Notes under the pieces: model-generated
What the model was told of the DNA's origin: nothing
Databases searched by the model: none
The model's input: only the letters and a program-made list of their open reading frames with translations
Shown: positions 2,459 to 7,548 of the stretch, piece by piece
Position numbering within the stretch: position 1 is the stretch's first letter
How the letters are laid out: every line of letters begins with the position of its first letter
DNA from: a phage
Sequence record: OZ335959.1
Direction: 5' to 3' (one strand)
DNA length: 64,000 bases
Program-made: the position numbers and the translations under genes

Positions 2459-3094
2459 TCACAGTTCAGATGCTACGGTGATTACTGCTTCAATGTTTTC
2501 TGCCGAGCGTTTAATGTCAAGATACACATTACCATTTTTAGCGATTTTACATGACATTCCGATATCAGTAAATTTCTGAATATGATGTTCCATCATTTTG
2601 TATCCAAAAATTCGCATATTTCCATTGTTGTTAATTTCAAAATTACGAATTCCGTGAGTGCGTTTTTCTAAAATAGCAAGATAGTTACTGCGGTAAGTTT
2701 CAACCTTTTTAAGAACAAATCCATTTTCATCTAAAAGTTTTAACATGAAGTCTTTATCTTCTTCCATATCGGAAGTAATCTCACGAGCTTTACGAGTTGC
2801 TCGTTTTTTCAGCAGTTCAGGAGCATTTTCCTGTGCGTATAAAGTTGCTGCATTTGAAATAATATCCTGAGCTTCGCCTGTGATGATTAATCCATCACCA
2901 GATTTCTCCACCAGGCCTTTTTTAATCAATACCCCAATATTACTATTAACTACTGCGTTACCTAAATCTGGATGCACCTCACGAACTTCTGCAGCTGTAA
3001 TGAAATCTTTCTTAGCAATGGTAATTAAAATCGCAGCAGTTTTTTCATTCAGAACATCGTTAGAAGCTTTGATGATGTAAGTTACTTTAGACAT
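2459..3094 (-). CDS. motA: Middle-transcription activator MotA
   Basis: 211-aa ORF MSKVTYIIKASNDVLNEKTAAILITIAKKDF... recognised as T4 MotA; exact T4 length. Confidence 0.93.
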   Translation of the reverse strand: MSKVTYIIKASNDVLNEKTAAILITIAKKDFITAAEVREVHPDLGNAVVNSNIGVLIKKGLVEKSGDGLIITGEAQDIISNAATLYAQENAPELLKKRATRKAREITSDMEEDKDFMLKLLDENGFVLKKVETYRSNYLAILEKRTHGIRNFEINNNGNMRIFGYKMMEHHIQKFTDIGMSCKIAKNGNVYLDIKRSAENIEAVITVASEL

Positions 3095-3135
3095 TTTCTA
3101 ATCTCCGTAATTCTGTATCAGTAGTTGATAGTTGT

Positions 3136-3165
3136 ATAGTACCACAGTATGCTTTGGTTGTAAAC
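3136..3165 (-). promoter_or_regulatory. Early promoter upstream of motA
   Basis: Minus strand GTTTAC, 18 bp, TACTAT with TGTGG upstream of -10 and A/T-rich UP region. Confidence 0.55.
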
Positions 3166-3185
3166 CGTTTTGTGAAAAAATTTTT

Positions 3186-3216
3186 GAAATAAAAAAGGGA
3201 GAGCCTCGGCTCTCCC
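3186..3216 (-). terminator. Rho-independent terminator after gene 52 / small ORF
   Basis: Minus strand GGGAGAGCC-GAGG-CTCTCCC hairpin followed by TTTTTTATTT. Confidence 0.6.
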
Positions 3217-3221
3217 TAAAA

Positions 3222-3371
3222 TTACTGCATGACTGTGATAACTGTCATGATAACACGTTGAATTCCGAATGCAAGAAGACCTCCTGCTACGGCTGGAACA
3301 ACACCTAAACCCGCTAGTAAAATGCTACCAGATACTAATGCCGCGCTTGTAATACCAATGAATGGACTCAT
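3222..3371 (-). CDS. Small hydrophobic protein, 49 aa (below track length cutoff)
   Basis: ATG overlaps gene 52 TGA (ATGA); translation MSPFIGITSAALVSGSILLAGLGVVPAVAGGLLAFGIQRVIMTVITVMQ is one or two TM helices. Confidence 0.45.
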   Translation of the reverse strand: MSPFIGITSAALVSGSILLAGLGVVPAVAGGLLAFGIQRVIMTVITVMQ

Positions 3372-4696
3372 TTGATTTCCTCTAAATCTTTAGTGTATTC
3401 GGTAACTACATCAGTAGTTTTCCAATATTCGTTTTCTTCTTTCTTAGCTTTAGCTTCTTCAGCAAGTTTCTTTGCTTCGTCGGAAGTCATATGAAAAATA
3501 TTCATTCCAACTAGTTTATCAACATAAGAAGAATACATATCAATTTTAGAAAGTTCTTCGGTCAGTTCTTTGCGAGTTTTACCTTGTACAACAATTTCAC
3601 CTGAAATCACTTTCTTAATGAAATGCGCCTTGGCAAAGGCTAAACGAAATGCTGATTCAGTTTCTTTGATTTTGTTATCAATTCGTTTTTGGACATAAGT
3701 TTTACGAACTTCAACGAAGTCTTTGATTAAATCAACTACGTTATCGTAAACTTGTAGCTTTCCTTTCTCATTAATAACGGTAATATTCTGGGAACGACGC
3801 TCAATCAACCCGAAGTCTTTCATAATTTTTGCATGGCGTTCTTCTTCGTTATCACTCAAAGAGTATTCTTTGCGGAATTTAACTTTGAAGCCAAAGCCAT
3901 GCTCACCACAAGCATCATCCCACGTAATGAAGCCTTTATCTTCAAGCGGGTCTAAGATTTTACTCACATAAGTTTCACGATCATACTTATACGGAATCTC
4001 AGTGATATGCATTTGAGTTCGTGAAGTAAACTTGTACGTTCCACGAATTTCATATTGACCGTCAATTTCAACGACTTCACCACGAAATTCTGGGAATTCT
4101 ACCTTAGGTTTAGTTACTTTCTTTCCTTGAAGAGCTTGCAATACAGCTTTCTTGACAGAAGAAACACTATGAGGAAGAATGTAAGTTGCATAACCAGTTG
4201 CAATACCGGAAACACCATTAAGAAGAACAGTAGGAATAATAGGCAAATAGAAAGCAGGCGGAATGTGTTCTTTATCTTGATGTACCGGAGCATATTCAGT
4301 ATCTTTATATACATTATAGAAATTTTTACTTACACGAGCAAAAATATAACGACTTGCCGCTGCTTTTTGAACGGTACGAGAACCAAAGTTTCCTTGACCA
4401 TCTAACAAAGGAAAGTTATTATTCCAAGTGTTAGCCATCAAAGCACCTGCGTCTTGCGCAGAGTTTTCACCATGATGATATCCAAGGTCTGCTACACCGC
4501 CTGCAATAGAAGCGAGTTTGTGAAACTTATCTTTATTTCCTCGTGCCAAATCAAGAGCTCGAGCAATAACAAATCGTTGAACTGGCTTAAATCCATCAAT
4601 CATATTTGGGATAGCACGATTTTCAACCGTGTACATAGCATAAGCCAATGCTTCATTATCAATGATACTTTTTAAATCGCGATTATTCAGTTGCAT
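3368..4696 (-). CDS. 52: DNA topoisomerase II medium subunit gp52 (GyrA-like)
   Basis: 442-aa ORF MQLNNRDLKSIIDNEALAYAMYTVENRAIPNMIDGFKPVQRF... with type II topoisomerase A-subunit N-terminal motifs; T4 gp52 length. Confidence 0.93.
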   Translation of the reverse strand: MQLNNRDLKSIIDNEALAYAMYTVENRAIPNMIDGFKPVQRFVIARALDLARGNKDKFHKLASIAGGVADLGYHHGENSAQDAGALMANTWNNNFPLLDGQGNFGSRTVQKAAASRYIFARVSKNFYNVYKDTEYAPVHQDKEHIPPAFYLPIIPTVLLNGVSGIATGYATYILPHSVSSVKKAVLQALQGKKVTKPKVEFPEFRGEVVEIDGQYEIRGTYKFTSRTQMHITEIPYKYDRETYVSKILDPLEDKGFITWDDACGEHGFGFKVKFRKEYSLSDNEEERHAKIMKDFGLIERRSQNITVINEKGKLQVYDNVVDLIKDFVEVRKTYVQKRIDNKIKETESAFRLAFAKAHFIKKVISGEIVVQGKTRKELTEELSKIDMYSSYVDKLVGMNIFHMTSDEAKKLAEEAKAKKEENEYWKTTDVVTEYTKDLEEIK

Positions 4697-4700
4697 AAAT

Positions 4701-4841
4701 TTACCATACTAGTGAATGTAGTGCCATAATAACATCAGAAATGAAAAGCACGACTTGAATTAATCCGAACATTACTCCATAATATAGTGCTACCAATAAA
4801 GTAGCAAGGGCTAATGAATAGCCCAAGATTTTCTTAATCAT
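4701..4841 (-). CDS. Small membrane protein, 46 aa
   Basis: Hand-translated MIKKILGYSLALATLLVALYYGVMFGLIQVVLFISDVIMALHSLVW; start overlaps stop of upstream small ORF. Confidence 0.4.
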   Translation of the reverse strand: MIKKILGYSLALATLLVALYYGVMFGLIQVVLFISDVIMALHSLVW

Positions 4842-4992
4842 TAGTAGATAACAACACAAATGTTAAATATGCACACATACCCTGGGCTAAAGCTTGTGAA
4901 AACACACTGCTAGCATCGATACAGATAGTTAAAACACATGCTACTATCCAACAAATAAATGAAATAACTCCTAATAATTTTGCGATATTCAT
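4834..4992 (-). CDS. Small membrane protein, 52 aa (ac-like by position)
   Basis: Hand-translated MNIAKLLGVISFICWIVACVLTICIDASSVFSQALAQGMCAYLTFVLLSTND; lies between stp and 52 as T4 ac does. Confidence 0.4.
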   Translation of the reverse strand: MNIAKLLGVISFICWIVACVLTICIDASSVFSQALAQGMCAYLTFVLLSTND

Positions 4993-4999
4993 ATTTTCC

Positions 5000-5080
5000 T
5001 CACTGGCGTCCGAAGACGCCTTTGGTTTTAAGATTGTTACGATAGAACTGCATCACATGTTCGTTATGGAAATTACTCAT
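5000..5080 (-). CDS. stp: Stp peptide, 26 aa (modulator of host EcoprrI / PrrC anticodon nuclease system)
   Basis: Hand-translated [26 protein letters not shown], identical to T4 Stp as I recall it; not in the track because under 60 aa. Confidence 0.8.
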
Positions 5081-5246
5081 ACACACCACACATTTTGCAT
5101 AAACGTTCAAAACAGATAAATCCGCCACCTACACACATCACGACAGCCACATTATCATTAAGAGGTAGACCTAAAGCCATAAAGATTCCGGTCACTGTGA
5201 ATAAGGCTAAAACTAATAGGTAACCCATTACAAATAGAGCTTTCAT
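5073..5246 (-). CDS. Small membrane protein, 57 aa
   Basis: Hand-translated [57 protein letters not shown]; ATG overlaps ndd stop (TAATG). Confidence 0.4.
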
Positions 5247-5701
5247 TAGTATGCCTGTAAAACAAATTTAAAGTTATCAGCCAACATACGATTCATTTCT
5301 TCAAGTGTTTGATACTCAGAATGATGATTACGAGTAAACGCTAAAGCTAACTGACCTTTTCCAAATCCTGTCGTCAAAGGTTTCATCTTAGAAGCAGGAA
5401 GATAAAATACTGTATATGGAACATTATTATTTGCAATAGTACGCGCAAGCTGAGACCGACGCTGACGAATATGACTTAGAACTGCACTGAATCCTTGCTT
5501 AGAACGCTGATTACCTACATAAAATCGTGCAGATACACACGGACTATCAAATGGACCACCAAATTTACTCACTAAAAAGTAAAATCCAGGTGTAGATAAA
5601 ATGTCTTTATGTGGAGTTCCAAAAACCCATTCACCGCCCTTGATTGTACCAATAACAGTAGCACCTGCATTATTCAAATCAGTAACAGTCATGTATTTCA
5701 T
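5246..5701 (-). CDS. ndd: Nucleoid disruption protein Ndd
   Basis: 151-aa [28 protein letters not shown]...; T4 Ndd length and position. Confidence 0.8.
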
Positions 5702-5760
5702 ATTAATTTCCTCTAATTATTTTCTACTCCAAGGCCGCATGAATACACACGGCCGATAAA

Positions 5761-5976
5761 TTAATCGTCGCAGTCGACGCTCAATTCCCAGAACTCTTCT
5801 ACAGTATAAGTTTCAGTATCGTTTTCAATACAGAAACGTTCATTACTGTTATTTGCTAAAGTAGCATTAACTGTCATTTTCTCGCTAGTGCTCTTAAGAG
5901 GTGAAATACGAATTAACTGATCACCACTATCCAAGCAAAAAATTTCGCCAACTTTTACATCTTTAAAAATTTTCAT
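5761..5976 (-). CDS. Hypothetical protein, 71 aa
   Basis: Track ORF on coding strand of operon. Confidence 0.5.
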   Translation of the reverse strand: MKIFKDVKVGEIFCLDSGDQLIRISPLKSTSEKMTVNATLANNSNERFCIENDTETYTVEEFWELSVDCDD

Positions 5977-6091
5977 AATTCACCTCAGGGAGTATAAAAT
6001 CCAAATGCAGTTGTTGACCATCCCATCCAATACGGAAAATTTGCACCAACGTAAAACATGAGAATATAAAACCAACCACTCAGCAAATTCA

Positions 6092-6310
6092 TCATTTTAC
6101 ACCATTCCAAATTGTTTCAACCACAGATTTTAAGCCATTTTGATGAATGTCCATTCCGACAACTGCCATCAAATAAATTCCAACTACAACTGAACCTAAG
6201 GCAAAAATCAGCATGAAAATGAATAAAGCTGGAAAAATATTATCGAAAAACCATTCAATAAATGTAAAAGCACTGCGTTTACGCTTCATATTTTCCTCAC
6301 ATAAATCCAA
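6092..6310 (-). CDS. Small membrane protein, 72 aa
   Basis: Track ORF; hydrophobic stretch IFPALFIFMLIFALGSVVVGIYLMAVVGM. Confidence 0.5.
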   Translation of the reverse strand: MDLCEENMKRKRSAFTFIEWFFDNIFPALFIFMLIFALGSVVVGIYLMAVVGMDIHQNGLKSVVETIWNGVK

Positions 6311-6410
6311 AGTAAGCGTTTAATACATCAATCATTAAAACGATTGGGAATATACTCAAAACTACTAGTATTATAACTACATTCCATATAGCTTTAACAA
6401 TCTTTTTCAT
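6297..6410 (-). CDS. Small membrane protein, 37 aa (track ORF trimmed to ATG after promoter)
   Basis: Track ORF 6297-6545 contains an early promoter inside its 5' part; ATG at 6408-6410 is preceded by GGAGG; product MKKIVKAIWNVVIILVVLSIFPIVLMIDVLNAYFGFM. Confidence 0.45.
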   Translation of the reverse strand: MKKIVKAIWNVVIILVVLSIFPIVLMIDVLNAYFGFM

Positions 6411-6438
6411 TTTCTGTTCCTCCGTAGTTGATAGGGTA

Positions 6439-6468
6439 ATAATACCACAGAGGAACAGTCTTGTAAAC
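6439..6468 (-). promoter_or_regulatory. Early promoter
   Basis: Minus strand GTTTAC, 18 bp, TATTAT (TGGTATTAT). Confidence 0.5.
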
Positions 6469-6653
6469 AACTTTTTTAAAAATATTCGTAATAAATGTGA
6501 ATACCAATCACCACTGCCGAAACTTGCGCAACCCACCACGCACAAGCAATAAGCACAGAATTCAAAATTTTCATAATAACCTCATTACAAAAGTAAATGT
6601 TAAACAAATTAATGGAATACTAATTAACCAAACAAAACACCACCACAATGAAC

Positions 6654-6917
6654 TCATAGTTCAATCTCAGCGATTTTCATTTCATTACTATTAATAGCCG
6701 CTTTAAGACTATCTGAAAGAATTACATTCCAGTGGTCATTCATATGACCATTAACTAAGCGTGTAATTTCTTCGGGAGTTGAAAAATAAGGCGTATCAGA
6801 CTCCCAATGCGATAATCCCAAGCGAGTATAAATCATACCTTCATCATCGCTAGAATATTCAACTGACACAAACTCATCAGTTATTTTATGTTTAGCGTAA
6901 TAAAATTTAAATTTCAT
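6654..6917 (-). CDS. Hypothetical protein, 87 aa
   Basis: Track ORF with GGAGG SD and own early promoter. Confidence 0.55.
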   Translation of the reverse strand: MKFKFYYAKHKITDEFVSVEYSSDDEGMIYTRLGLSHWESDTPYFSTPEEITRLVNGHMNDHWNVILSDSLKAAINSNEMKIAEIEL

Positions 6918-6944
6918 TTTTACTCCTCCGTAGCTGATAGTTGT

Positions 6945-6974
6945 ATAGTACCACAGTCCTTGTGGTATGTAAAC
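6945..6974 (-). promoter_or_regulatory. Early promoter
   Basis: Minus strand GTTTAC, 18 bp, TACTAT. Confidence 0.5.
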
Positions 6975-6990
6975 CGTTTTGTGAAAATTT

Positions 6991-7548
6991 TTAAATGGAA
7001 AGATACCATCCGTTGTAGTTGCTTTTTCTTACAACCTTACGAAGGTCTTCTCTATCACCAATGAACTTCGGAGTGTACTGGATGACACCTGGATGAATTT
7101 CTTTAGTGTTGAATATAATTATACAGTCAGCGACCTGATGATTCAGAATGGGCCCTAGATTTATTCCAGAACCATATGGATACTCTCCGCTGCATCCTGT
7201 TGTTACAGAAATCCAACGTGAGTCAGTTTGATGTGTCTTAACTTCTACACGAAGCCCGCAGTATCTTGGATGCGCCAATACATCCCATGCATATGTATAC
7301 GGGTCATTAACATCTTCTTGGCCTTTGTTAACATACCCGCTTAGCCAATCTGCTACAAAAAACTCTGCGTACACCGCGATACGGCATCTTTCGATAACTT
7401 CTGCTTTATCCTGATTTGGATTTTGTTTTAAAGAGTATCTTGCTGTATCAGCAATTTTGACCTTCATTTCACTAGTCAAGTCACTGTTCGATAGGGTAAA
7501 TGTCGGAATCTGAAATAGTCTCTGTAAACCCGGATTCGTTTTCTGCAT
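6991..7548 (-). CDS. denB: Endonuclease IV DenB (cytosine-DNA specific)
   Basis: 185-aa ORF; T4 DenB length and position between ndd and rIIB. Confidence 0.7.
   Translation of the reverse strand: MQKTNPGLQRLFQIPTFTLSNSDLTSEMKVKIADTARYSLKQNPNQDKAEVIERCRIAVYAEFFVADWLSGYVNKGQEDVNDPYTYAWDVLAHPRYCGLRVEVKTHQTDSRWISVTTGCSGEYPYGSGINLGPILNHQVADCIIIFNTKEIHPGVIQYTPKFIGDREDLRKVVRKSNYNGWYLSI

Follow-up and report, generated by a model that had tools for sequence, protein, structure and literature searches.

The short reading frames between gene 52 and ndd in the window, a stretch of 64,000 nucleotides of phage DNA (record OZ335959.1), are very probably best explained together, as the ndd-to-gene-52 early block of a Tequatrovirus in which ndd, orf57, stp, ac, 52.1, gene 52 and motA.1 are packed on one strand. 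By its sequence the window belongs to a T4-like phage, a Tequatrovirus; over the 1 kb around the small genes it shares 99.9% identity with Escherichia phage ECp13, 590 phage records match this part, and the minus strand carries all genes of the stretch around stp and ac. Read in that direction, the block runs from ndd (5246..5701), which encodes the 151-aa nucleoid disruption protein and is annotated as such in ECp13, SholemSchwarzbard and T4, through orf57 (5073..5246; a 57-aa hydrophobic protein with an ATG start), stp (5000..5080; 26 aa), ac (4834..4992; a 52-aa membrane protein) and 52.1 (4701..4841; a 46-aa predicted membrane protein), to gene 52 (3368..4696), the downstream neighbour of 52.1, which encodes the 442-aa medium subunit of topoisomerase II, and finally to motA.1 (3222..3371), which encodes a 49-aa hydrophobic peptide. 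The T4 reference annotation of the same interval reads ndd, stp, ac, 52.1, 52. Since three of the small genes, stp, ac and 52.1, belong to textbook knowledge of T4 and the orf57 family is likewise already annotated, the novelty is low, and the main value of the analysis is that it confirms that the sequence was read correctly.

The initial annotation had placed four ORFs of 57, 26, 52 and 46 aa between gene 52 and ndd, and all four are indeed present on the minus strand at those lengths. Together these ATG-initiated frames tile 97.6% of the 552-nt interval from ndd to gene 52, against a mean of 29.5% in dinucleotide-preserving shuffles, none of which (0/2000) reached 90%, and they are therefore not the product of chance. 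On the plus strand, the interval holds no ATG ORF of at least 26 aa. The same small ORFs are annotated in near-identical phages, and phrog_3595 is also among the family matches of the four, while a search of NCBIfam returned no significant matches. The membrane peptides among them had been assigned jointly to the T4 ac locus. This stands for the 52-aa peptide, which is Ac; the 46-aa peptide is gp52.1, the product of a separate T4 gene, and the 57-aa peptide does not belong there at all, being encoded between ndd and stp in a 166-bp segment that T4 and T2 lack.

Expression of the block as an early unit is suggested by several features of the surrounding DNA. A search of the minus strand from 4600 to 7000 found no middle promoter with a MotA box. 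Early-type sigma-70 promoter matches lie upstream at 6467, 6973 and 6268, as matches to a consensus only, in a background of 20 promoter-like sites where 15.4 were expected. At the other end, a hairpin resembling an intrinsic terminator follows motA.1 (3217-3196, minus strand; a 9-bp stem with 6 GC pairs, then TTTTTATTTC); it too is a consensus match only, and it likely marks the end of the transcription unit. Rfam models applied to 3000-7200 gave only a sub-threshold match to CrcZ, at this same terminator. The T4 RNAs for stp, ac and 52.1 have been assigned to the early class (PMC9697503, Table S2), and a review calls Stp delayed-early (PMC3014915). Given the lack of a MotA box in the searched stretch, the early-type matches, the terminator and the early class of the T4 RNAs, the simplest model is one wherein the genes from ndd to motA.1 would form part of a long early polycistronic transcript, begun at sigma-70-type promoters upstream of ndd and ended past motA.1. 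In the T4 shotgun proteome the protein class of stp, ac and 52.1 is given as NA, and Ndd was detected (PMC9697503, Table S2). An NA entry is expected for tiny hydrophobic peptides, yet it is still an absence. At the protein level the small peptides are predicted products, the exception being what classical genetics provides for stp and ac.

One of the small products is Stp. The 26-aa peptide quoted in the initial annotation was found exactly at 5000-5080; it is 100% identical to T4 Stp over all 26 aa, and it matches the Pfam family PF08133 (Nuclease_act) over its full length, 1-26, with 75.3 bits (cut-off 25; E = 2e-21), as well as phrog_6763. A sequence search of the PDB with Stp returned no solved structure. 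By inhibiting the type IC enzymes EcoprrI and EcoR124I, Stp unmasks the anticodon nuclease PrrC; suppressor (loss-of-function) mutations cluster in its residues 4-14, and its last 8 codons are largely dispensable (PMC3014915). The function that had been ascribed to the peptide, interference with EcoprrI that triggers PrrC, agrees with this established role. Judging from its identity to the T4 peptide, the soluble Stp encoded here should act on type IC restriction and PrrC as T4 Stp does: it would bind the host EcoprrI type IC complex, block DNA restriction and unmask the tRNA-Lys anticodon nuclease PrrC. T4 stp (T4p267) also lies upstream of ac, with the same C(UUCG)G hairpin in its last codons and the same stop/Shine-Dalgarno/ATG junction into ac. 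The two genes differ at their starts, since the ATG of T4 stp overlaps the ndd stop (TAATG), whereas here stp starts within orf57, sharing the last 8 nt of that gene, and the upstream sequence is different.

Stp-like tblastn matches occur in 799 records, many of them phages of 40-50 kb, and a 10-residue core is kept in the Dhakavirus, T2, Kagunavirus and Drexlerviridae homologues. Unannotated Stp-like peptides were seen in siphophages unrelated to T4, namely the Kagunavirus phage G AB-2017 (KY295895; locus L020, 1501-1578) and the Drexlerviridae Enterobacter phage AS5 (OR753409; L023, 601-681), and their constant core and variable C-terminus fit the known dispensability of the Stp C-terminus. 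In Dhakavirus ESCO10 (L004, 1667-1747) an unannotated 26-residue stp and the end of the orf57 homologue overlap in just the way seen in the window; Dhakavirus VR5 has an orf57 homologue of 59 aa and lacks stp. A T2 record (PV958097; L019, 1599-1760) encodes a Stp of 27 aa with a replaced C-terminus (…NNLKNFGILGFKK), and the hairpin is lost. These comparisons are of some value for annotation, as Stp goes unannotated in many related records and is entered in some sister genomes as a 29-aa version that starts from an upstream GTG inside orf57 (L002, 1912-2001; L021, 712-801). Of the two versions, the 26-aa one from the ATG agrees with T4, because the corresponding upstream codons in T4 belong to ndd.

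Downstream of stp, the alignment with T4 Ac that had been suggested for the 52-aa peptide gives 96% identity to the T4 protein of 51 aa, the difference in length being one extra Thr near the C-terminus, from an inserted codon that gives LLSTND against LLSND. Ac matches phrog_2501 (E = 4e-25) and gave no match in a Pfam search. Synteny agrees with the assignment: the gene lies between stp and 52.1 as in T4, where ac (T4p266) has the same neighbours and also overlaps 52.1 by 8 nt. Wild-type Ac confers sensitivity to acridines (acriflavine) and loss of ac leads to resistance, and Ac has been proposed, in a 2025 preprint, to interfere with AcrAB-TolC (bioRxiv 10.1101/2025.06.30.662393). The Ac protein encoded here would make infected cells take up or retain acridines, with a block of efflux through AcrAB-TolC as the proposed route.

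The ac position itself varies among related phages. The ac gene of the T2 record PV958097 has an in-frame stop at codon 11. In vB_EcoM-101117BS1 (MZ234018; L021, 809-1133), a divergent Ac paralogue, 41% identical, lies between stp and ac, and some Tequatroviruses therefore have two tandem genes of the ac family. A family of small membrane proteins of 51-60 aa with the motif G[VA]WVP takes the ac position in Dhakavirus, Winklervirus, Kagamiyamavirus and Marfavirus (L004, 1755-1919; L018, 1688-1852; L006, 1671-1826; L007, 1811-1969; L017, 1671-1838). Product names in the ESCO10 record are visibly shifted in this region, such that the 57-aa ORF, for example, is labelled 'sliding clamp'.

The 46-aa peptide is 98% identical to T4 gp52.1, with one substitution (T14 against A14), and it matches the Pfam family DUF7396 with 81.9 bits (cut-off 27). 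Like the gene described here, T4 gene 52.1 (T4p265) encodes 46 aa and lies directly upstream of gene 52, and dN/dS against the Dhakavirus copy is 0.07. Homology among orf57, gp52.1 and Ac was considered and rejected: profile-profile comparisons of orf57 with gp52.1 and of orf57 with Ac gave probabilities below 1%, so that the three are unrelated families and not paralogues. These unrelated, very hydrophobic peptides would insert into the inner membrane, and by analogy with Ac it is our guess that gp52.1 and orf57 modify inner-membrane transport or permeability early in infection. Several very hydrophobic small ORFs of the ndd.x type also lie upstream of ndd (5980-6545, minus strand), and the stretch from ndd to motA is one T4 cluster of predicted small membrane proteins.

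The 57-aa product of orf57 aligns over its full length with the phrog_5941 profile (57 positions; E = 8e-28), a family of unknown function, and had no match in Pfam. It is 98% identical to WWE96913.1 of ECp13, and the records of ECp13, SholemSchwarzbard, Sf24 and others list it as a hypothetical protein. A phrog_5941 protein is encoded downstream of ndd in ECp13, Sf24, ime09, Shfl2, Dhakavirus, Jiaodavirus and other phages; these relatives start on the ndd stop as orf57 does and show no difference of substance, and orf57 combines every mark of the family, from the full-length profile match and a length within 57-61 aa to the start on the ndd stop and the F-E-R motif. Because phrog_5941 is without a T4 member, the gene has neither a T4 name nor a genetic history. 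By tblastn, orf57 is present in 222 phage records from at least 7 sampled genera, at 57-61 aa and down to about 40% identity: 22 records, a minority of the Tequatroviruses, have copies 95-99% identical to that of the window, 15 have copies of 60-80%, and the 185 below 60% come mostly from Klebsiella phages. An exhaustive search of 1.84 billion representative proteins retrieved only eight small clusters, of 57-61 aa, along with a few long Cys-rich proteins whose matches are spurious; a word-indexed search retrieved 3 proteins, and scans of viral contigs retrieved 2 and 7 loci. None of these three kinds of search found orf57 outside T4-like phages.

Gene order around orf57 was inspected in seven contexts (Dhakavirus ESCO10 and VR5, Jiaodavirus 311F, Winklervirus CHI14, Kagamiyamavirus EcS1, Marfavirus EI and a metagenome contig). 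In all of them orf57 starts no more than 1-2 nt from the ndd stop, and in five of the seven its stop overlaps the ATG of the next gene, with ATGA as the overlap in four and one of 7 nt in EcS1; the orf57 homologue of ESCO10 overlaps the stp ATG by 8 nt, and that of VR5 is followed by a 7-nt gap. The minimal arrangement, ndd-orf57-52.1-52, is found in Jiaodavirus and in the metagenome contig. Elsewhere, variable insertions come between orf57 and 52.1: stp, ac, the divergent Ac paralogue, and a fourth family with the GVWVP motif.

Two hydrophobic segments and a GRAVY of 1.39 characterize the orf57 protein, for which AlphaFold2 places helices at 2-24 and 31-52 with moderate confidence (pLDDT 71.5), consistent with a predicted two-helix membrane hairpin. 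Residues Y9, G20, F22, G26, V33, F46-E47-R48 and G54 are invariant, the F-E-R motif coming after the second hydrophobic segment. The other two frames of orf57 are full of stops. Against the Dhakavirus copy dN/dS is 0.55, a value from a single pair to which one off-frame comes close; as this is not decisive, the case for orf57 as a real gene rests on the breadth of its conservation. It is in this light that a non-functional orf57, either a dispensable cassette of a hyperplastic region or a decaying remnant, should be judged. Such a reading draws on the absence of the gene from T4, from T2 and from most of the approximately 590 related records, with copies of 95-99% identity in only 22, on the pairwise dN/dS, and on the lack of a known function. 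Nonetheless, we regard it as very improbable, because the frame is open at 57-61 aa in 222 records across at least seven genera and down to about 40% identity, because it has invariant residues, the F-E-R motif included, and because orf57 is kept even in the minimal arrangement of Jiaodavirus and the metagenome contig.

How orf57 came to be present here and missing from T4 and T2, in both of which stp begins right at the ndd stop (TAATG), can be approached through the junction itself. Relative to T4, the window has 166 extra bp, bounded on both sides by the tetranucleotide ATGA. At the nucleotide level, orf57 and stp are about 83% identical to the Dhakavirus locus, and gene 52 about 80%. Because this identity is like that of gene 52, and because every examined outgroup has orf57, we favour the view that in T-even-type phages the ancestral neighbour of ndd was probably orf57, and that a 166-bp microhomology deletion between the two ATGA copies would have removed it from T4, T2 and most Tequatroviruses and placed stp on the ndd stop; a re-acquisition is less probable. 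That T4 and T2 have an identical ndd-TAATG-stp junction was also counted in favour of an ancestral orf57, and the direction of the change, loss as opposed to gain, was assigned by parsimony over a handful of genera.

The opposite direction, an insertion by which this Tequatrovirus lineage received orf57 through recombination with another genus, we consider unlikely. It would readily account for the fact that only about 4% of Tequatrovirus-like records have the gene, and it suits a region known for cassette exchange (PMC4122927) in which unrelated genes take the ac position in other genera. At the same time, insertion does not sit well with the presence of orf57 directly after ndd in every outgroup genus examined, nor with a divergence from the Dhakavirus copy in line with what gene 52 and 52.1 show on its flank, and the 4-nt ATGA repeat that bounds the indel is what a microhomology deletion is expected to leave. 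A recent import of orf57 together with stp from Dhakavirus was considered as well, since their dS is lower than that of ndd; it was rejected as the main reading because the identity matches that of gene 52 and 52.1, and only the 5' half of ndd is unusually divergent.

The initial annotation had described a chain in which each start overlaps the preceding stop by ATGA or TAATG. Overlap is indeed found at ndd/orf57, orf57/stp and ac/52.1, and fails at stp/ac, where TGA-GGAAAAT-ATG leaves a 7-nt gap; as to its form, TAATG is correct for ndd/orf57, with an overlap of 1 nt, and orf57 and stp share 8 nt (ATGAGTAA) in which the in-frame stop is TAA, not the TGA of ATGA. The ac/52.1 junction (ATGATTAA) likewise overlaps by 8 nt, and the pattern ATGAnTAA is common to both 8-nt overlaps. 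A 4-nt gap (TAA-ATTT-ATG) separates 52.1 from gene 52, whose stop in turn shares ATGA (3368-3371; 4 nt) with the start of motA.1, so that the chain of genes continues downstream of the four small ORFs. By direct reading of the sequence, no recognisable Shine-Dalgarno precedes orf57 or 52.1; the stp start is preceded by a weak GGUG and that of ac by a good GAGG (4998..5001), which lies 5 nt ahead of the ATG and overlaps the stp TGA stop. If a close start combined with a weak or absent Shine-Dalgarno is taken as the mark of coupling, then ndd/orf57 and ac/52.1 have both properties, orf57/stp has them in part (GGUG lies upstream), and stp/ac, with its 7-nt gap and its own GAGG, does not.

From gene spacing alone, translational coupling in the chain is plausible. 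As orf57 and 52.1 have no usable Shine-Dalgarno and their ATGs lie 1 nt and 8 nt inside the upstream gene, they would most likely be translated by ribosomes terminating on ndd and ac, respectively, and such termination-reinitiation is reasonable to expect, given the spacing and the fact that other genera conserve it. For stp, initiation would occur 8 nt inside orf57 behind the weak GGUG, and for ac at its own GAGG site after the 7-nt gap. A model in which the overlaps reflect mere genome compaction, each small gene initiating independently and without functional coupling, has something to recommend it, namely the good GAGG of ac 7 nt past stp, the GGUG element upstream of stp, the Kagunavirus stp homologue that follows a GGAG-containing leader with no annotated gene directly upstream, and the persistence of stp both in T4, after ndd, and here, after orf57, despite a wholly different upstream context. 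We nevertheless find it somewhat doubtful: it leaves orf57 and 52.1 without a recognisable Shine-Dalgarno, and it has difficulty explaining a positional constancy in which orf57 starts no more than 1-2 nt from the ndd stop in all genera examined and its own stop usually overlaps the next gene by ATGA. Among the siphophage Stp homologues coupling is not uniform, and the Drexlerviridae copy overlaps the preceding ORF by ATGA.

Beyond spacing, the RNA around stp and ac may carry information of its own. A perfect C(UUCG)G tetraloop hairpin (GGCGUCUUCGGACGCC; 5005..5020, minus strand), with arms GGCGUC and GACGCC around UUCG, is built from stp codons 21-26 and stands directly 5' of the ribosome-binding site of ac; it is part of a 31-nt fold with a free energy of -12.2 kcal/mol (z = -3.1). 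The hairpin is identical in T4 and Dhakavirus ESCO10 and absent from the stp genes of T2 and Kagunavirus. Its identity in the first two phages, and its absence from Kagunavirus stp even though the GVFG peptide is kept there, suggest a role at the RNA level, in mRNA stability or processing, on top of coding. UUCG tetraloop hairpins have long been known to be enriched in T4 mRNA, and the excess of CTTCGG in the window (38 occurrences against 12.1 expected, a count that 0/100 shuffles reach) matches this. In the predicted minimum-free-energy fold of the 111-nt segment 4975-5085 (minus strand; z = -2.7), stp codons 4-6 (UUUCC) pair with the ac ribosome-binding site (GGAAA), and such pairing could couple translation of ac to that of stp through RNA structure.

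Regardless of how each start is reached, what is mildly new here is a lead: a membrane peptide linked to ndd and conserved in other genera is missing from the model phage; because T4 is without it, orf57 has never been studied genetically. One can imagine that orf57 is an ancestral inner-membrane partner of Ndd, tied to it translationally in T-even-type genera outside most Tequatroviruses and missed because T4 deleted it, a speculation to which we attach little probability. If it is true, orf57 could have a part in positioning the disrupted nucleoid, or Ndd itself, at the membrane; alternatively, it could act with Stp, Ac and gp52.1 as a module for host takeover or counter-defence.
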